DNA of 64,000 nucleotides from an uncultured Pelagibacteraceae bacterium (lineage in GTDB: Bacteria > Pseudomonadota > Alphaproteobacteria > Pelagibacterales > AG-422-B15), in the NCBI GenBank assembly GCA_902624455.1, contig CACNXQ010000001.1:333828-397827 (forward strand), written 5' to 3'. Positions within the stretch are counted from its first letter, which is position 1. Each line of letters opens with the position of its first letter. The notes under the pieces were generated by a model that saw only the letters and a list, made by a program, of their open reading frames with translations, was not told the origin of the DNA and did no database searches. A program made the position numbers and the translations under genes. Shown here in pieces: positions 8,467-59,816 of this stretch.

Positions 8467-9441
8467 ATGAGTAAAATACTAGTATGTGGTGCAGGAGGAT
8501 TCATAGGATCTCACCTGGTTAAAAAACTTAAGTCTGAAGGGCATTGGGTTAGAGGAGTAGACTTAAAATATCCTCGCTATGATGAGACTTTTGCGGATGA
8601 CTTTATTATTGGGGATTTAAGGGATCCTAATTTCTGTTTACAAGTAGTTGATCAGAAATTTGACGAAATTTATCAATTAGCAGCTGATATGGGGGGAGCA
8701 GGTTTTGTTTTTGTTGGCACTCATGATGCTGACATTATGCATAATAGTGCAGCAATAAATTTAAATATGCTTGAGGCAGCTAGAAAAAGAAACAATAAGA
8801 ATATATTTTATTCTTCATCTGCTTGTATGTATCCTGAATACAATCAACTTGATCCTGACAATCCAAACTGCGCAGAGGACTCAGCATATCCTGCAAATCC
8901 TGATAGTGAATATGGATGGGAAAAATTATTTTCTGAACGACTTTATTTAGCTTATGCAAAAAACTATGGAATGGATGTAAGTATTGCACGATATCATAAT
9001 ATATTTGGAATAGAAGGATCATGGTCTGACGGAAGAGAAAAAGCACCAGCTGCGATTTGTAGAAAAGTTGCGCAAGCAAGTGATGGTGGAGAAATCGAGA
9101 TCTGGGGTGATGGAAAACAAACTAGATCCTTTTTATATATAGACGAGTGTATTGAGGGATCAATAAAGTTAATGAGGTCGAACTGGAGTGGGCCTGTAAA
9201 CATTGGTTCAGACGAAATGATTGCAATTAATGATCTCGCAAAAATGGTAATCGAGATAAGTGGAAAAGATATATCAATTAAAAATATTGATGGTCCTGTA
9301 GGCGTTCGAGGTAGGAATTCTGATAACAAATTAATAAACGAAAAACTTGGATGGAAGCCATCAGAATCACTTAAAGATGGCATTATTAAAACGTATGAAT
9401 GGATTAGCACTCAAGTAAGTAATAAAAAACAAGATATTTAA
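8467..9441 (+). CDS. GDP-mannose 3,5-epimerase homolog (extended SDR)
   Basis: Near-colinear with plant GME as I recall it: CGAGGFIGSH, AADMGGAGF, SSACMYPE, YGWEKL, GREKAPAAICRK, WGDGKQTRSFLYIDECIEG, PVNIGSDEM, GPVGVRGRNSDNKLINEKLGWKP. Strong SD AAGGAG lies 8 nt upstream. Confidence 0.8.
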   Translation: MSKILVCGAGGFIGSHLVKKLKSEGHWVRGVDLKYPRYDETFADDFIIGDLRDPNFCLQVVDQKFDEIYQLAADMGGAGFVFVGTHDADIMHNSAAINLNMLEAARKRNNKNIFYSSSACMYPEYNQLDPDNPNCAEDSAYPANPDSEYGWEKLFSERLYLAYAKNYGMDVSIARYHNIFGIEGSWSDGREKAPAAICRKVAQASDGGEIEIWGDGKQTRSFLYIDECIEGSIKLMRSNWSGPVNIGSDEMIAINDLAKMVIEISGKDISIKNIDGPVGVRGRNSDNKLINEKLGWKPSESLKDGIIKTYEWISTQVSNKKQDI

Positions 9442-9488
9442 TAGTTTTAATCATTTATTATTTTAGACATAGGAGTAGTCTTAAGTTA

Positions 9489-10556
9489 ATGGAACAAGGT
9501 CAGATACTTAAGTCTAATGACTTAACTAAATTCATAGTAAATTCTCAATTATTTAAGAATAGTCCGTTCTCACTTATAGATGTTGGTTGTAGTGGAGGGA
9601 TATCAAGCATTTGGAACATTTATGAGCCTCACTTGAAAGCCTACGGTATTGACCCAGTGATCTCAGAGTGCGAAAATCTTAATAAAAATAAAACAAGTAA
9701 AAATATTAATTACTTTCCTGCTTTAATCGGTTTAGACAAAAAGAACAAGCATTATCAAAAAGTCAAAGATGCTGCCAATAATATCAATAATCCCTGGGAT
9801 GAGTTAAGTGCAAAATTGGGCTCTGATATTTTAAATGATAAGATTAAAACTGAGAATAAACTCTCAGTTTTAAATAATTGGAATAATCAAGATTTAGTCA
9901 GTGAAAGTGATCAAATCTCTCTAAGTGAGTTTGTAAAAGTAAAAGAGATTGATAACCTTGATTTTATTAAGATTGACATTGATGGTAATGATTTTGAAGT
10001 TCTTTTATCCTTAGACAACTTACCATATGATTACTCTGTATGTGGATTTGCTTTAGAGGTAAATTTTTATGGTGGAATTAACTCCTATGAACACACTTTC
10101 CATAACACGGATTTATTTATGAAGAAACTTGGCTATCAGCTTTTTGATTTATCAATTAGAAGATACTCGTTGTCAAGCCTACCTTCACCCTTTGAATATA
10201 ACATTCCCGCTCAAACTATTAACGGAAGACCCTATCAGGGTGATGCAATATATTTACTTGATCCACTTATGATGAAAAATAGTAATAACAACAGAATTGA
10301 CATTTCTTCTGACCCAGTAAAGTTATTAAAATTGACATGTTTATTTGAAAACTTTGGTTTATATGATCATGCAGCAAGAATAATAATTGATTTTAAAGAA
10401 GTTATAAGAGAGTACGTAAATACTTCAGATTTGTTAGATATATTAGTTAGACAAATTAACCCAAATTACAAAAGTTATGATGAATACATAAATTCATTTG
10501 AAAAAGATCCAGAGTCATTTTTTAGATCATCGTGGGACAATACAAAAAATGCCTAG
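9489..10556 (+). CDS. FkbM-family methyltransferase (Methyltransf_21-like)
   Basis: SLIDVGCSGG SAM-binding region and DFIKIDIDGNDFEVL, the hallmark FkbM block. Confidence 0.65.
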   Translation: MEQGQILKSNDLTKFIVNSQLFKNSPFSLIDVGCSGGISSIWNIYEPHLKAYGIDPVISECENLNKNKTSKNINYFPALIGLDKKNKHYQKVKDAANNINNPWDELSAKLGSDILNDKIKTENKLSVLNNWNNQDLVSESDQISLSEFVKVKEIDNLDFIKIDIDGNDFEVLLSLDNLPYDYSVCGFALEVNFYGGINSYEHTFHNTDLFMKKLGYQLFDLSIRRYSLSSLPSPFEYNIPAQTINGRPYQGDAIYLLDPLMMKNSNNNRIDISSDPVKLLKLTCLFENFGLYDHAARIIIDFKEVIREYVNTSDLLDILVRQINPNYKSYDEYINSFEKDPESFFRSSWDNTKNA

Positions 10557-11708: not shown

Positions 11709-13400
11709 ATGCGAAATAAAACTTACCTTTCTGTTGTTGCAGTATCAAGAAATGATAATCATGGTGGCGATCCGCTTATAAGAACACAAATATTTATCAA
11801 TTGTTTAGCCGAACAATGTAAAATTTATAAAATTCAAACTGAACTTATTATTGTTGACTGGAACCCAGTTGAAAATGAGAAATTACTTAAAGATGTTTTA
11901 ATTGCACCAGAAAGCGAATACTTCGAATTAAAGTTTGTGGTTGTGCCTACTGAGCTTCACAATAAATTTAAGTATAGCGAGAGCCTTCCATTATTTCAAA
12001 TGATCGGTAAAAATGTAGGCATTAGACGAGCACAAGGCAAATTCATCTTAGCTACAAACATAGATATTATTTTTTCAAATGAACTAATGTCATTTATCGG
12101 TAAAAAAAATTTAAAGGAAAATGAAGTATATCGCTTGGACCGTTTTGACATAAGATCTGGACTAGAAGTAAATACAACTCTAAGTGAAGCCTTAACATTC
12201 GCCTGGGAAAATGTTTATTACAAAAATACTAGATTTTGTGACGATGAACTAAAGGAGGCTATTTATGGTAATTTAAAAGATAATCTGGCAAAACCAAATG
12301 TTGAATACTTAAAAAAAAGGGACTACCCAATCGTTTATGAGGACAGTGGAAACTTTGGAATTAGATCACCAAAAAAAGTAAATTATATGGAACTTCACAC
12401 AAATGCATGTGGAGATTTTACATTAATGTCAAAAAAAGGGTGGGAGGAGATTAGAGGTTACGCTGAATTCGAGGCTTACTCATTTAATATTGACAGTTGT
12501 GGTTTAATTTCAGCGCATTTTAATGGTTATAGAGAAATTTCACTTCTTCCACCCATGGTGTGTTTTCATATTGAACATTCGCTTGGCTCAGGTTGGAGTC
12601 TTGATGGCGAGACAAAACTTTTTAATCGTTTGGAAAAATCTAAAATTTTAAATCCAGAATGGCCTGTCTTAATAAATCTATTTGACGAAATACTTTCAAC
12701 TAAAGATGGAAGGCTTATATTCAATAATGAGCACTGGGGTATGTCTAAATTTGACTTAAATGACAGGAATTGCACTACCGAAAGCATGAAAACCATCAAC
12801 GTATCATCATTAATAGCTCAACTGGATCTTGATCTGCAAAGTTACTGGCTACTTAGAACGGATGAAGACCAAATGAAAAAATATCTCAATCATAAGTTTG
12901 ATCATGAAAACTTTGTTAATACATTTTATGACACATTTACAAGCAAGATTTATGTACCAGATACACTCGGTCGTTTTTCAGAAAAAAACAGTGTTACTAG
13001 AGACTCTATCTATGTAGGTGATATTTATTACAAATTAACTTTTCTTTTTAAGGGATGGAAAAATAATTATCCTGTAAGATTTGACCCATTTGATAATTTG
13101 GGTGAAGGTGAGATTACTAAAATTCTACTAATCAATAAAGATGCTAAAAAGGTTGAGATAAATTATCAAGGCGGTGACTTACATCAATTTGTACATCCAA
13201 TGAACGATATAAAGGTAGATAATACCAATCCTAAAAATTATTTTAATTTTAAGTCAACTGGTAAAGATCCATTTTTCTATATTAATATAGGGAATAATAC
13301 CAAAAAAGGGATAGAATATGAACTTCAAATCATATCATCAATTAACAACTATGAAAAAAAAGCTGTATCAACTCAGACATTAATTAAGGTTGACACTTAA
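11709..13400 (+). CDS. Hypothetical protein, probable GT-A-fold glycosyltransferase N-terminal half with unknown C-terminal domain
   Basis: LSVVAVSRNDNHGG...ELIIVDWNP and ILATNIDIIF resemble a GT-A nucleotide-binding core. ACGDFTLMSKKGWEEIRGY resembles the GT-A C-terminal region. The last roughly 200 aa are unassigned. Confidence 0.4.
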   Translation: MRNKTYLSVVAVSRNDNHGGDPLIRTQIFINCLAEQCKIYKIQTELIIVDWNPVENEKLLKDVLIAPESEYFELKFVVVPTELHNKFKYSESLPLFQMIGKNVGIRRAQGKFILATNIDIIFSNELMSFIGKKNLKENEVYRLDRFDIRSGLEVNTTLSEALTFAWENVYYKNTRFCDDELKEAIYGNLKDNLAKPNVEYLKKRDYPIVYEDSGNFGIRSPKKVNYMELHTNACGDFTLMSKKGWEEIRGYAEFEAYSFNIDSCGLISAHFNGYREISLLPPMVCFHIEHSLGSGWSLDGETKLFNRLEKSKILNPEWPVLINLFDEILSTKDGRLIFNNEHWGMSKFDLNDRNCTTESMKTINVSSLIAQLDLDLQSYWLLRTDEDQMKKYLNHKFDHENFVNTFYDTFTSKIYVPDTLGRFSEKNSVTRDSIYVGDIYYKLTFLFKGWKNNYPVRFDPFDNLGEGEITKILLINKDAKKVEINYQGGDLHQFVHPMNDIKVDNTNPKNYFNFKSTGKDPFFYINIGNNTKKGIEYELQIISSINNYEKKAVSTQTLIKVDT

Positions 13401-13423
13401 GATAAAAAAAATAAATAAGTAGT

Positions 13424-14788
13424 ATGGATTTCAAAAATGTTGCAGTTATAGGTTGTGGTAAGCTTGGCGGCACCATGGTAGGTTGTTTAGCAAGTAGAGG
13501 CTTTAATGTCACTGCTGTAGACGTATCTGAGGCTGCTGTTAATGCTCTTAATAATGGTGAAGCACCGGCACAAGAAAATGGATTAGATGAACTTATTGCA
13601 GCAAATAAAGAGAAGATAACAGCTACAATGTCTCACGAAGATGCAATCCTAAAAAGTGATATTAGTTTTGTTATAATTCCAACGCCAAGCGATAAAAGTG
13701 GTGCTTTCACAAATCAATATGCAATTCACGCATTTAAAGAAATTGGAAAAGCACTTGCAAAAAAAGACTCTTATCATACAGTTGTTTTAACAAGCACAGT
13801 AATGCCTGGCTCTACACGATCAGTATTGTTGCCGGTACTTGAGGAAAACTCGGGAAAAAAATGTGGTGAAGATTTCGGTCTTTGTTATTCACCTGAATTC
13901 ATAGCCCTTGGAACAGTCATTAGAGACTATCTTAATCCTGACTTTTATCTAGTTGGAGAGTTTGATAAACAATCTGGAGATTATCTTGAATATGTTAACA
14001 ATGCTGTAGCACTCAATCATGCACCAACTAAAAGAATGACTCTAGAAAATGCAGAACTTGCAAAGATTGCTGTTAATAGTTTTGTAACAATGAAAATAAG
14101 TTATGCCAATATGCTCGCTGATATGTGTGAAAAAATCCCAGGCGGTAATGTTGATGTTGTTTCAGATGCTCTAGGGATGGATAAAAGAATAGGCAGACAC
14201 TATCTCACCGGTGGTTTTGGATACGGAGGACCATGTTTTCCACGTGACAATGTCGCATTAGACTATGCTGGAAGAAAGCTCGGTGCTAATACTATTTTGC
14301 TGAGGACTAATGATGACTTCAATAGAAATATATCTCCAAGAATCGTAGAAAGAATAAATACCTATCTAAATGCTGACGATACCGTTTCAGTATTAGGTTT
14401 GTCTTACAAACCATTATCACATCTCATTGAAGAGTCTCCAGGTATTTATTTATGCGACTCACTTGCTAGTATGGGATATAGAGTTCTAGGATATGATCCA
14501 CTTGCAAATGAATATGCGAAACAGGCTCTAAAAAACACCCTCATCCTTGACGACTTAGAAGAATGCTTAAATCAGTCAAATGTTATTTTGGTAACCAATA
14601 ACGACGACGTGTTTACATCCTTGTCTGCCAATGATTATCTTGGGAATAAGGATAGTGTTACTATTGTTGACTTCTGGCGCTGTCTACCCGATGAAATTAA
14701 AAACGATTCAAGAATTACTTATGTTCCTCTTGGTAAATGCTTGGATGATGAAACAGCAGCTAAAAATCTTTCTTCTTTATGGAATTAG
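13424..14788 (+). CDS. Nucleotide-sugar dehydrogenase (UDP-glucose/GDP-mannose dehydrogenase family), copy 2
   Basis: VIGCGKLGGTMVGCLA, CYSPEFIALG, GGPCFPRDN, GLSYKP. Colinear with copy 1 at 1206-2558. Confidence 0.85.
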   Translation: MDFKNVAVIGCGKLGGTMVGCLASRGFNVTAVDVSEAAVNALNNGEAPAQENGLDELIAANKEKITATMSHEDAILKSDISFVIIPTPSDKSGAFTNQYAIHAFKEIGKALAKKDSYHTVVLTSTVMPGSTRSVLLPVLEENSGKKCGEDFGLCYSPEFIALGTVIRDYLNPDFYLVGEFDKQSGDYLEYVNNAVALNHAPTKRMTLENAELAKIAVNSFVTMKISYANMLADMCEKIPGGNVDVVSDALGMDKRIGRHYLTGGFGYGGPCFPRDNVALDYAGRKLGANTILLRTNDDFNRNISPRIVERINTYLNADDTVSVLGLSYKPLSHLIEESPGIYLCDSLASMGYRVLGYDPLANEYAKQALKNTLILDDLEECLNQSNVILVTNNDDVFTSLSANDYLGNKDSVTIVDFWRCLPDEIKNDSRITYVPLGKCLDDETAAKNLSSLWN

Positions 14789-36083: not shown

Positions 36084-36158
36084 GGGCACGTAGCTCAGTG
36101 GTAGAGCATCACGTTGACATCGTGGGGGTTGTTGGTTCGATCCCAACCGTGCCCACCA
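36084..36158 (+). tRNA. tRNA-Val (anticodon GAC), CCA encoded
   Basis: Hand-folded cloverleaf: acceptor GGGCACG/CGTGCCC, D-arm GCTC/GAGC, anticodon stem TCACG/CGTGG with loop TTGACAT, T-arm GTTGG-TTCGATC-CCAAC, discriminator A plus CCA. Confidence 0.9.
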
Positions 36159-54655: not shown

Positions 54656-55405
54656 ATGGCTGGTCATAGCAAGTTTAAAAACATTATGTACCGCAAGGGA
54701 GCTCAAGATAAAAAAAGAGCCAGCTTGTTTTCAAAAATTTCAAAAGAAATAACTGTTGCTGCGAAACTTGGCGCTCCTGATCCAGAACAGAATGCGAGAC
54801 TAAGATCAGCAATTCAATTAGCTAAGGCCAACAGCTTTCCAAAAGATAATATAGAAAGGGCAATTAAAAAATCTTCTGAAAAAGATCATATTAATTATGA
54901 CCAAATGAGATATGAAGGATTTGGTCCAGGTGGTACATCTATTATTGTTGAAGCTCTCACTGATAACAAAAACCGCACAGCCTCTAATGTTAGAACAGCA
55001 TTTCAGAAATTCGGTGGATCTCTTGGTGAAACAGGATCAGTTTCACATGCATTTAGTCATTATGGTTATGTAAGATACGATAAAGAAAGTTTGGAGGTAA
55101 GTGAGGAGGAATTTTTTAATAAAGCAATAGACAGTGGTGCAGATGATTGCTTAATTGATGAAGATTTTTTTGAGGGGTTATGTAAACCAGATGAGTTATC
55201 AAATTTTTATAATCTTCTTCAAAAAGAAATTGGAGAGCCAAATGCTTCGGGGTTTCAATGGAAGCCAACCAGCCAAATAAATATTGAGGGAGAAAAACTT
55301 AAATCTCTTTTTAATTTGCTAAACGAACTTGAAAATGACGAGGATGTTCAACATGTCTACTCAAATTTTGAAGCAAATGAAGATGAAATTAATAATTTAG
55401 CTTAA
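54656..55405 (+). CDS. yebC: YebC/PmpR-family transcriptional regulator
   Basis: MAGHSKFKNIMYRKGAQDKKRA, YEGFGPGG, TDNKNRT. Confidence 0.95.
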   Translation: MAGHSKFKNIMYRKGAQDKKRASLFSKISKEITVAAKLGAPDPEQNARLRSAIQLAKANSFPKDNIERAIKKSSEKDHINYDQMRYEGFGPGGTSIIVEALTDNKNRTASNVRTAFQKFGGSLGETGSVSHAFSHYGYVRYDKESLEVSEEEFFNKAIDSGADDCLIDEDFFEGLCKPDELSNFYNLLQKEIGEPNASGFQWKPTSQINIEGEKLKSLFNLLNELENDEDVQHVYSNFEANEDEINNLA

Positions 55406-55472
55406 CTTATTCCCTTTAAAATAAATGATTTTTATCTATCCTTAAGTTTATCAATAAACTTGATTCGTTTTT

Positions 55473-55853
55473 ATGGCAGGAAGTGCACCAAAGAGAAAAG
55501 GTGATGGGTATGAGCGAGAGCTTGCTAAGTATTTAAATGAAAAAATGTTTGATGGTGATGATAAAGTTCAGAGGATGCCACTTTCGGGAGGTGGCGCTGT
55601 AAAGTCATCGGGCGGCAGTGATTTAAAAAATACACCCCATATTTTTGTAGAAGCAAAGAGGACTGAAAAGTTCAAGATCCACGAGTCAATTAAACAGGCT
55701 GAATTTAATGCAGAATTATCTAAATCAGAAGATACGCCAATCGTAATTACTAGACGGAATAGAGAGTCAACCGGTGAGTCATTGTGTGTTTTAAGGTTAG
55801 ATGATTTTCTAAAATTTTATAAAGCAATGTTAGACTCTAGGAGTGATAACTAG
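55473..55853 (+). CDS. Putative PD-(D/E)xK nuclease resembling archaeal/phage Hjc-type Holliday junction resolvases
   Basis: KRKGDGYERELAKYL (cf. Hjc KG...ERELxxxL), PLSGGG, SDL (Asp), FVEAKR (ExK). 126 aa. Assignment rests on a motif pattern recalled from memory only. Confidence 0.5.
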   Translation: MAGSAPKRKGDGYERELAKYLNEKMFDGDDKVQRMPLSGGGAVKSSGGSDLKNTPHIFVEAKRTEKFKIHESIKQAEFNAELSKSEDTPIVITRRNRESTGESLCVLRLDDFLKFYKAMLDSRSDN

Positions 55854-55891
55854 TGCCCTATTTAAGACATATTAATATCTGAGAAGTAAAT

Positions 55892-56593
55892 ATGGAAAAT
55901 GAAGAAATAGTAGCTGTATCACAAATCAATGACGAATTTTCTCTGATCTCATTATTTTTCAGAGCTGATATAGTTGTAAAATTAGTAATTCTAATCCTAT
56001 TTGCCGCTTCGATTTATTCATGGACAATAATTATTCATAAAATTCGATTGTTTCGAACACTTAGTAAAAAAAGCAAAGAATTTGAAACTGAATTCTGGTC
56101 AGGTCGTTCACTCAAAGACATTAGCTCAAGCGTAGCTACATTAGAGGAAAGCCCAATCAAATATGTATTTGAGGAAGCAGTAGAAGAAATCGAAAAATCT
56201 AATAAATCTAGTGAAAAAAAAATAGACACTCTTATAGATCGAATTAATAGAAAAATTGACGCAGCTATAGATTTTCAAAATGAAAAAATGTCAGAGTATT
56301 TTAGTTATCTCGCAACAATCGGTGCAACTACTCCTTTTATTGGATTATTTGGAACTGTGTGGGGCATAATGAATTCTTTTCAATCAATCGCTATTTCTAG
56401 GAACACCTCTCTGGCCGTAGTTGCACCGGGCATAGCCGAAGCACTTTTTGCAACAGCGTTAGGTTTACTAGCAGCGATACCAGCAGTTATTGCCTATAAT
56501 ATTTTCACTAGTCAGGTAAATGACGAAAATGCAAGAATGTATCGTTTTAAAGAACACTTCAATATAATTTTTTCAAGAGGTTTGAGTAGCTAA
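55892..56593 (+). CDS. tolQ: Tol-Pal system protein TolQ
   Basis: MotA/TolQ/ExbB blocks: [46 protein letters not shown]. Confidence 0.95.
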
Positions 56594-59174: not shown

Positions 59175-59291
59175 TTAAAAACCCCAAAAAAGGTAGTTTT
59201 ATTTGAAATTTATAGGGAATTTCTTGTAGACTTGTGTTATTTAATGAATAAAGTACCTCAAGGGCTTACAACTATTTACGGGAGTAATGTA

Positions 59292-59816
59292 ATGATTTTT
59301 AAATCTTTTCTTAGATATTCAATAATTTTAATGTCTGCTTTAATTATAGCGGCGTGTGCAACTGTTCCAGATGAAACAGTTTCATCATCATCATCTTCAA
59401 GTTCGTCTTCTTCAACATCATCTGGCCCTCAAGTTGTTGATGGAGTTTATGTAGGATCTGAAACTGTTGAAATGCTAGCTGTAGATGTGCCAGACAGAGT
59501 CTTCTTCGCTTATGACAGTTTTGCACTTAATTCTAACGCTCAAGACACTCTATCTAAACAAGCAGCATGGTTAAAGGCTAATGGTTCAGTTACTATCGCA
59601 ATCGAAGGTCATGCTGATGAAAGAGGTACAAGGGAATATAACTTAGCTTTAGGTGATCGTAGAGCTAATGCAGCAAAAGATTACTTAATGTCACAAGGTA
59701 TAAGTGCGAATAGAATAACTACAATTAGCTTTGGTAAGGAAAAACCAGTTGTTAACGCATCAAATGATAAAGCCTGGGCACAAAATCGTAGATCTGTAAC
59801 TGTAAGAACTAACTAA
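59292..59816 (+). CDS. pal: Peptidoglycan-associated lipoprotein Pal (OmpA family)
   Basis: Lipobox LIIAAC, poly-Ser linker, OmpA_C blocks VFFAYDSFAL, IEGHADERGTREYNLALGDRRA, AQNRRSV. Start moved to ATG 59292 (GGGAG 7 nt upstream). Confidence 0.9.
   Translation: MIFKSFLRYSIILMSALIIAACATVPDETVSSSSSSSSSSSTSSGPQVVDGVYVGSETVEMLAVDVPDRVFFAYDSFALNSNAQDTLSKQAAWLKANGSVTIAIEGHADERGTREYNLALGDRRANAAKDYLMSQGISANRITTISFGKEKPVVNASNDKAWAQNRRSVTVRTN

Follow-up and report, generated by a model that had tools for sequence, protein, structure and literature searches.

The gene between yebC and tolQ

The 64-kb stretch of DNA analysed here (the window) is a segment of a Pelagibacteraceae (SAR11) chromosome in which a small gene, termed X below, lies between yebC (54656-55405, + strand; TACO1/YebC family) and tolQ (55892-56593, + strand), the latter heading the run tolQRAB-pal-cpoB. 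X begins with an ATG at 55473, its stop codon ends at 55853 on the + strand, and its product of 126 aa is a Hjc-like PD-(D/E)xK nuclease of the PDDEXK_15 family and a putative Holliday junction resolvase, as judged from the open reading frame (ORF) call, Pfam, PHROG, profile searches of the PDB, an AlphaFold2 model and the ratio of non-synonymous to synonymous substitution rates (dN/dS). The preliminary description of this DNA had singled out the interval 55406-55891, which is the entire yebC-tolQ gap, and had seen yebC and tolQ separated by a single 126-aa gene; the ORF call confirms that gene. The exact protein occurs on 535 contigs and is entered at NCBI as MAN18139.1, "hypothetical protein [Pelagibacteraceae bacterium]".

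Comparison with an outgroup alphaproteobacterium (L072; GCA_046290575.1) identifies the position that X occupies. The outgroup shares the upstream block of SAR11 (fba-pgk-gap-tkt / zapA / 5-FCL / ymdB / yebC), and there yebC adjoins ruvC, the order continuing as ruvC-ruvA-ruvB-ybgC-tolQ-tolR-tolA-tolB-pal-cpoB-tilS. This matches the arrangement that had been expected for alphaproteobacteria (yebC-ruvCAB-ybgC-tolQRAB-pal-cpoB-tilS), and X stands in the ruvC-ruvA-ruvB-ybgC slot, as had been proposed. Species-representative genomes yielded 59 loci when scanned, of which 47 belong to Pelagibacteraceae or Pelagibacterales, and the order yebC-X-tolQ is kept in all 47 Pelagibacteraceae species as well as on further contigs, two of which are 1.37-1.39 Mb long. 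None of ruvC, ruvA, ruvB and ybgC lies within 10 kb of X at about 55 SAR11 loci, and the true RuvC of the outgroup, used as a query, finds no match in the window or at any SAR11 locus examined. The change at the slot is from about 2.6 kb of DNA, holding four genes, to one gene of 0.38 kb.

Family membership, phage relatives and selection

X is a member of the Pfam family PDDEXK_15 (PF24608), which it matches over residues 7-111 with 32.7 bits (E=8.5e-8), above the gathering score of 27 bits. Pfam describes this family as a putative PD-(D/E)xK endonuclease of phages. X also matches PHROG 244 (E=2e-20), whose label "RusA-like" is a misnomer, X having no match to the RusA model of Pfam. RuvC (PF02075), RusA (PF05866) and RecU (PF03838) all fail to match X in Pfam even at E<=10, no NCBIfam model matches it, and the PADLOC defence models give no family at E<=1.

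Two alignments were used to follow the family outwards, one of 31 sequences and one of 72 that reaches down to 25% identity. Searches of the PDB with X alone or with the 31-sequence profile returned designed helical-repeat noise, and Hjc was reached only by the 72-sequence profile, for which solved Hjc resolvases are the best matches. These span Sulfolobus, Pyrococcus and Sulfurisphaera, with E-values of 5.2e-5 for S. solfataricus 4tkd_A, 3.4e-4 for 1hh1, 1.5e-3 for 4tkk, 0.011 for ST1444 (2eo0) and 0.053 for P. furiosus 1gef, and extend to the Hjc of phage Tth15-6 (7bgs, 4.2e-3). In the two best alignments, those with 4tkd and 1hh1, the elements KRKGxxxER, RAPxSG, the Asp and E-x-K are in register with the X family. 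When the 72 members were scanned individually, 69 matched PDDEXK_15 and 14 also matched Hjc, and a few gave weak matches to the restriction-nuclease models Mrr_cat and HSDR_N. On these comparisons X is best described as a member of PDDEXK_15 and a homologue of Hjc in a sister family that, by Pfam's rule, stands outside PF01870.

In the AlphaFold2 model of X (mean predicted local distance difference test (pLDDT) score 85) the alpha and beta elements follow an order that is compatible with the alpha-beta-beta-beta-alpha-beta core fold. Hjc heads the Foldseek matches of this model in the PDB, as it does the profile search. Against the predicted viral structures of BFVD the model finds 26 matches at E<=1e-3, with template modelling (TM) scores of up to 0.77, several of them named Holliday junction resolvase. 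The identification of an Hjc-like PD-(D/E)xK nuclease, for which profile comparison and structure prediction had been suggested as checks, is upheld by these searches.

The residues expected of such an enzyme are in place. All the motifs quoted in the preliminary description are found in X, namely GDGYERELAKYL at residues 10-21, SGGG at 38-41, SDL at 49-51 and FVEAKR at 58-63. The N-terminal basic arm K7-R8-K9-G10 and motif I, E14, are encoded at 55491-55514 (+ strand; E14 at 55512-55514) and align with KRKGSAVER of S. solfataricus Hjc; the Gly-rich loop S38-G41...G48 and motif II, S49-D50, follow at 55584-55622 (S49-D50 at 55617-55622), with D50 aligned to the catalytic Asp of Hjc; and motif III, E60-A61-K62, the ExK of PD-(D/E)xK, lies at 55650-55658 and aligns with IEMK of Hjc. 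X therefore carries the full PD-(D/E)xK signature (E14, D50, E60-A-K62), which also agrees with the E-SD-ExK signature of the Tth15-6 protein. The latter, from a Thermus phage, cuts junctions in vitro, and its E-SD-EVK motif was proposed as a hallmark of phage Hjc (PMC8805305). Across the 31-sequence alignment K9, G10, E14, R15, R34, S38-G41, G48, D50, E60, A61, K62, R63, E65, Q75 and R94 are invariant; at the depth of the 72-sequence alignment G10, R34, E60 and K62 remain so, with E14 and D50 at least 90% conserved. Among 50 distinct SAR11 orthologues E14, D50, E60 and K62 are all invariant, together with K9, G10, S38, G39-41 and G48.

The nearest relatives of X outside SAR11 are about 55% identical and are found in phage or prophage settings, in keeping with the phage-type origin proposed for it. 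All the non-SAR11 loci inspected are phage or prophage, and the other genome matches occur singly, scattered over unrelated phyla. One relative (P0070) belongs to a stretch of a Rhodospirillales chromosome that also carries terminase and portal genes, and others lie on contigs of 37-43 kb with genes for a Prim-Pol, an AAA ATPase, a YqaJ-like nuclease, an integrase and a LuxR protein. The sole match in an isolate is gp22 of Roseobacter phage CRP-810, annotated "Holliday junction resolvase", which is 53% identical to X and sits in the same Prim-Pol/YqaJ-type module. The phage family to which CRP-810 belongs is reported to count among its members a prophage in the genome of a single SAR11 cell, and one of its subgroups to have SAR11 as predicted host (PMC11288001). 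The X family as a whole amounts to 1,593 representative clusters when 1.84 billion proteins are searched at E<=1e-3. A neighbour-joining tree places the SAR11 copies in one clade if a SAR11-like fragment is included, with a bootstrap value of 13/30, and is not relied on here.

The same slot has been filled by a second type of PDDEXK_15 gene in a sister AT-rich, streamlined lineage (L070, L071, L195 and L196, listed at NCBI as "Alphaproteobacteria/Pseudomonadota/Rhodobiaceae bacterium" metagenome-assembled genomes (MAGs)). Here the long-range gene order is kept from rpmE through yebC, after which come a PDDEXK_15 gene of 169 aa directly following yebC (7423-7932 in L070, 10756-11265 in L195), ybgC, tilS, ftsH and glmM; neither ruvCAB nor tolQRAB-pal-cpoB is present at the slot, tilS standing directly after ybgC. 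The 169-aa protein scores 80 bits on PDDEXK_15 and keeps the motifs KGxxYE...GD...CECK, and it is too diverged to be detected by tblastn with X. Its relatives, at 45-63% identity, occur in T4-like and jumbo myophage contigs beside Mre11/Rad50-like (gp47/gp46-type) genes and T4 baseplate and portal genes, and among isolates this type is carried by Salicola phage SCTP-2, Pseudomonas phage PA5oct ("D14 protein/putative resolvase") and Sinorhizobium phage Phosso. The presence of two phage subfamilies at this position implies that a gene was captured twice, or that it was captured once and later exchanged for another phage allele. That two PDDEXK_15 subfamilies occupy a single housekeeping slot means that the position is kept filled by such an enzyme, which argues for a function replacing RuvC rather than for an accidental scar. 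Separately, on marine T4-like or jumbo myophage contigs of 16-335 kb (L197-L199) a PDDEXK_15 gene lies just downstream of the Mre11/Rad50-like genes, which suggests that PDDEXK_15 is the resolvase of these myophages in place of T4 endonuclease VII.

Within SAR11 the gene is firmly maintained. The median pairwise dN/dS of X is 0.07 and the maximum 0.33 (488 unsaturated pairs from the 50 distinct orthologues), and between the same pairs of genomes X is 72-80% identical where YebC is 63-77%, X being far more conserved than TilS. The composition of the gene also resembles that of its surroundings: GC content at third codon positions (GC3) across about 55 SAR11 loci is 0.214 for X and 0.22 for its neighbours. 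Since dN/dS is 0.07, the catalytic residues are invariant, conservation is like that of YebC and composition in other lineages is like that of the neighbouring genes, X is an old, ameliorated and selected gene and not a remnant. Only the window copy has a higher GC3, of 0.307 against 0.185-0.237 in fifteen other window genes, which could be chance (about 2-2.3 standard deviations over 126 codons) or a lineage-specific allele replacement. The GC content of about 38% noted for the start of the gene is correct as a value (38.0% for the first 100 nt and 38.1% for the whole ORF, against 33-34% in neighbouring genes and 31.0% in the window), but it is uninformative, being peculiar to the copy of this lineage. 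As a sign of recent transfer it was rejected, the GC3 of X being that of its neighbours across the SAR11 loci.

Junction resolution in SAR11

The fate of the ruv genes beyond the slot can be followed in the gene list of SAR11 strain HTCC1062 (Table S1, "All Gene Locations", of Smith et al. 2010; PMC2864753), which with about 1,377 SAR11 locus-tag mentions covers essentially the whole genome. Immediately before tolQ this table lists SAR11_0593, labelled "ruvC, crossover junction endodeoxyribonuclease" (PMC2864753). The order 5-FCL, ymdB, yebC, SAR11_0593, tolQ is that of every X locus examined, and because of this shared order SAR11_0593 is almost certainly the X orthologue, named ruvC by the annotators of 2005. 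It is the single "ruvC" of the table, which holds no "ruvA", "ruvB" or "Holliday junction DNA helicase". Only five helicases are listed (uvrD, rhlE, suv3, dnaB and recG), and the strain has recG (SAR11_0993), recA, recO, recR, priA and lexA, a ybgC elsewhere (SAR11_0872) and a YqgF-type "putative Holliday junction resolvase" (SAR11_1079; PMC2864753). The known absence of mutS is visible in the same table, which serves as a control. The suggestion that ruvAB had been moved or lost thus fits this strain, with ybgC relocated and recG retained. In a scan of metagenome contigs with an AT-biased pattern for the RuvB Walker A motif (GPPGLGKTT), at least 120 loci were found and none among the matches listed is SAR11-like, a weak negative. 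The RuvB groups listed were read tentatively as Bacteroidota-like, Firmicutes-like and like other proteobacteria, and the locus with the best tetranucleotide match among them (L120) looks flavobacterial, having alternative complex III and cox genes; the tetranucleotide correlation of the RuvB contigs mainly followed AT content and gave no discrimination.

Taken with the family assignment, the synteny and the phage relatives, these observations support the preliminary proposal of a non-orthologous displacement of RuvC by a resolvase of phage or archaeal type, as far as sequence comparison can establish it, and X is probably the Holliday junction resolvase of the cell in place of RuvC. Whether SAR11 is without any RuvAB, and relies on RecG together with X, is a more evenly balanced matter. 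The full scenario, with RuvABC discarded in SAR11 in favour of a phage-captured Hjc-like nuclease plus RecG, and the slot filled from phages at least twice (by an allele of the CRP-810 temperate type in Pelagibacteraceae and by a jumbo or T4-like allele in the sister lineage), has about an even chance of being correct.

On the main reading, that X replaces RuvC, the SAR11 ancestor would have acquired a phage gene and fixed it in its chromosome at the very place where ruvC-ruvA-ruvB-ybgC had stood. By homology with archaeal Hjc and the Tth15-6 enzyme, X would act as a homodimer that binds four-way junctions by their structure, using the Gly-rich loop and the KRKG sequence of its basic N-terminal arm; Mg2+ would be held by E14, D50 and E60, and K62 would stabilise the transition state, so as to introduce two symmetric nicks in opposite strands and yield two ligatable duplexes. 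Branch migration would most likely be carried out by RecG, since the HTCC1062 table lists recG and neither ruvA nor ruvB. The pair of X and RecG would then be a natural, fixed counterpart of the rus suppressor of E. coli, in which RusA and RecG replace RuvABC. RusA rescues E. coli ruv mutants if RecG is present, and archaeal Hjc restores repair in E. coli lacking RuvC (PMC10956419).

Several observations weigh against this reading. As a single sequence X scores 14.5 bits (E=0.034) on the Pfam Hjc model PF01870, under the gathering score of 21.1 bits; the Foldseek matches of its model to Hjc in the PDB are weak (E about 0.02, TM about 0.43); and in the loop at residues 39-46 the model is poor and of low confidence. 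Hjc-like folds also occur in restriction-type nucleases, and the searchable literature yielded no assays of PDDEXK_15 members close to X. SAR11_0593 is linked to X by gene order and not by sequence, and the absence of ruvA and ruvB rests on the 2005 annotation table of one strain. Finally, a 2025 study of SAR11 recombination genes names recBCD, recF and mutSL as missing and does not mention ruv (PMC12374537), a silence that is mild evidence the other way.

X might alternatively be a domesticated phage nuclease with another job, such as restriction-like defence, superinfection exclusion or action on other branched or damaged DNA, and the slot the scar of a phage insertion that deleted ruvCAB-ybgC, with X kept for some unrelated benefit. 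Its closest relatives are phage genes, and the few weak family matches to Mrr_cat and HSDR_N point in that direction. This explanation is nevertheless unlikely. X has no match among the PADLOC defence models, is a lone gene without partner genes and, unlike defence islands, is core and syntenic across the whole family; it is most strongly homologous to genuine resolvases, whose catalytic and DNA-arm residues are conserved in it, and the ruvC slot holds two different PDDEXK_15 subfamilies. Nor does the HTCC1062 table offer another resolvase candidate, except for the YqgF-type protein.

Less probable still is that a canonical RuvC, perhaps with RuvAB, is encoded elsewhere in SAR11 and that X is an accessory or redundant resolvase. 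The 2025 study, in not naming ruv among the missing genes, would allow for this, whereas the near-whole-genome table of HTCC1062, with the slot gene as its one "ruvC", its five helicases and no ruvA or ruvB, speaks against it, as do the lack of any ruv gene within 10 kb at the loci surveyed and, more weakly, the metagenome scan. That X is a functionless, decaying prophage remnant might be thought from its phage ancestry and from the slightly raised GC3 of the window copy, but this is refuted by the selection analysis and is highly improbable: the median dN/dS and the invariant catalytic residues of the 50 orthologues, a level of conservation equal to that of YebC, a composition ameliorated in other lineages and the presence of the exact protein on so many contigs are not those of a decaying gene.

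X differs from each of the closest known systems. Archaeal Hjc (PF01870; 1HH1, 4TKD, 1GEF, 2EO0) is of the same size class and has the same succession of basic N-terminus-G-x3-E-R, Ser/Gly loop, D and ExK, whereas X belongs to the separate, phage-centred family PDDEXK_15, differs in its C-terminal half and in the greater length of the Gly-rich loop that precedes motif II, and is bacterial and chromosomal, without a known PCNA-type partner. With the Hjc-like proteins of phages (Tth15-6 Hjc, 7BGS/7BNX, and CRP-810 gp22) X shares the E-SD-ExK motif, membership of PDDEXK_15 and PHROG 244 and the identity to gp22 given above, but it is a fixed, single-copy core gene of its host, under purifying selection at a housekeeping operon position and away from any phage replication module. 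RuvC itself (PF02075) has in common with X the slot directly after yebC and the "ruvC" label in HTCC1062; it has an RNase H fold with DEDD carboxylates, in contrast to the E/D/E/K of X, and shows no sequence similarity to it.

The kind of event proposed is already known from RecU, which replaces RuvC, and from RusA, which can replace RuvABC. RecU of Firmicutes and Mollicutes, a PD-(D/E)xK-fold resolvase in the place of RuvC lineage-wide, is the established precedent for non-orthologous displacement; it works with RuvAB (which the HTCC1062 table lacks), is larger than X, has a stalk domain and gives no sequence match. E. coli RusA, from the cryptic prophage DLP12, acts with RecG as a prophage-derived substitute for RuvABC and so parallels the SAR11 set of X plus recG without ruvAB, but it is of another fold and family and is normally silent and accessory in E. 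coli, where X belongs to the constitutive core genome. The SAR11 gene likewise already bears a function label, being called "ruvC" in HTCC1062 and, by IMG, "Holliday junction resolvase"; the NCBI name is now "hypothetical protein". The searchable literature yielded no statement that this gene is a Hjc-like PDDEXK_15 nuclease of phage origin, and none on the deleted ruvCAB-ybgC slot, the apparently missing ruvAB or the phage allele found there in the sister lineage.

RuvAB and RuvC are near universal in free-living bacteria and serve as phylogenetic markers, and no other free-living bacterial lineage in the ocean is as abundant as SAR11. A dominant lineage that recombines without RuvABC would show how streamlining can simplify DNA repair by means of a phage part, a 126-aa nuclease that acts with RecG and is encoded in about 0.4 kb instead of about 2.6 kb. 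It would also correct a database label, the "ruvC" of HTCC1062 not being a RuvC, and supply a missing piece for the SAR11 recombination gene set, which is also without MutSL, RecBCD and RecF and has been invoked for high recombination rates. If this is true, the unusually promiscuous recombination of SAR11 could owe something to having a resolvase that is independent of sequence and no longer coupled to RuvAB. The practical stakes are modest, because the precedents of RecU and RusA exist.

Intergenic elements and other features of the window

Two short elements in the DNA flanking X are conserved across SAR11. The upstream one, TTGATTCG (55460-55467, + strand), ends 5 nt before the ATG of X and is the sole upstream element conserved across SAR11 lineages. 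Its core, (T)GATTCG, precedes the ATG by 3-9 nt in each of the 37 distinct orthologous intergenic regions listed except that of L054, which has CGATTCG, and the intergenic region around it diverges between SAR11 lineages (L001-L055). It is unlike a Shine-Dalgarno sequence and may be a leader or regulatory element. Downstream, GTGCCCTATTTAAGACA (55853-55869, + strand) lies between the stop codon of X and tolQ and has a conserved form, (T)TGCC(C/T/G)nAnTTA(A/T)GACA, that recurs in nearly all the SAR11 lineages listed, a few of them differing from it by a single base. Across SAR11 this TTGCCCnAnTTAAGACA-like element overlaps or just follows the stop codon of X upstream of tolQ, it has no second match in the window, and it may be a promoter or operator of tolQ.

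The perfect inverted repeat AAGTTTAT-CA-ATAAACTT (55444-55461), to which the preliminary description had drawn attention as lying 12 nt upstream of the ATG, does exist, at a spacing of 11 nt, and is best regarded as incidental. Repeats with 8-bp arms and loops of up to 4 nt number 16 in the window against 16.6 in Markov simulations; the predicted hairpin (-5.4 kcal/mol, z = -0.93) is no better than those of shuffled sequences; and other SAR11 lineages lack the palindrome in their orthologous intergenic regions. No terminator-like site was found. A role as operator or terminator was rejected on account of the non-conservation, chance frequency, ordinary folding and lack of a terminator-like site.

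Some further observations concern the loci compared and the remainder of the window. On two of the SAR11 contigs, L002 (a MAG contig) and L003 (a polished contig of 1.39 Mb), yebC, zapA and tolB are split or truncated (9193-9936, 12379-13706) and the sequence otherwise matches L001; the disruptions probably reflect frameshifts due to sequencing error and not true pseudogenes. From about 1 to 30100 the window holds a run of glycosyltransferase, sugar epimerase/dehydratase, aminotransferase, methyltransferase and O-antigen-ligase-like genes of lower GC content, which resembles the cell-surface hypervariable region of SAR11. A single tRNA (36084-36155), in a 440-bp gap between ORFs, is the sole Rfam match at the gathering threshold in the window. 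Downstream of X, the Pal/OmpA-family lipoprotein encoded at 59232-59816 carries a serine run (SSSSSSSSSSSTSS) beyond its signal/lipobox region.

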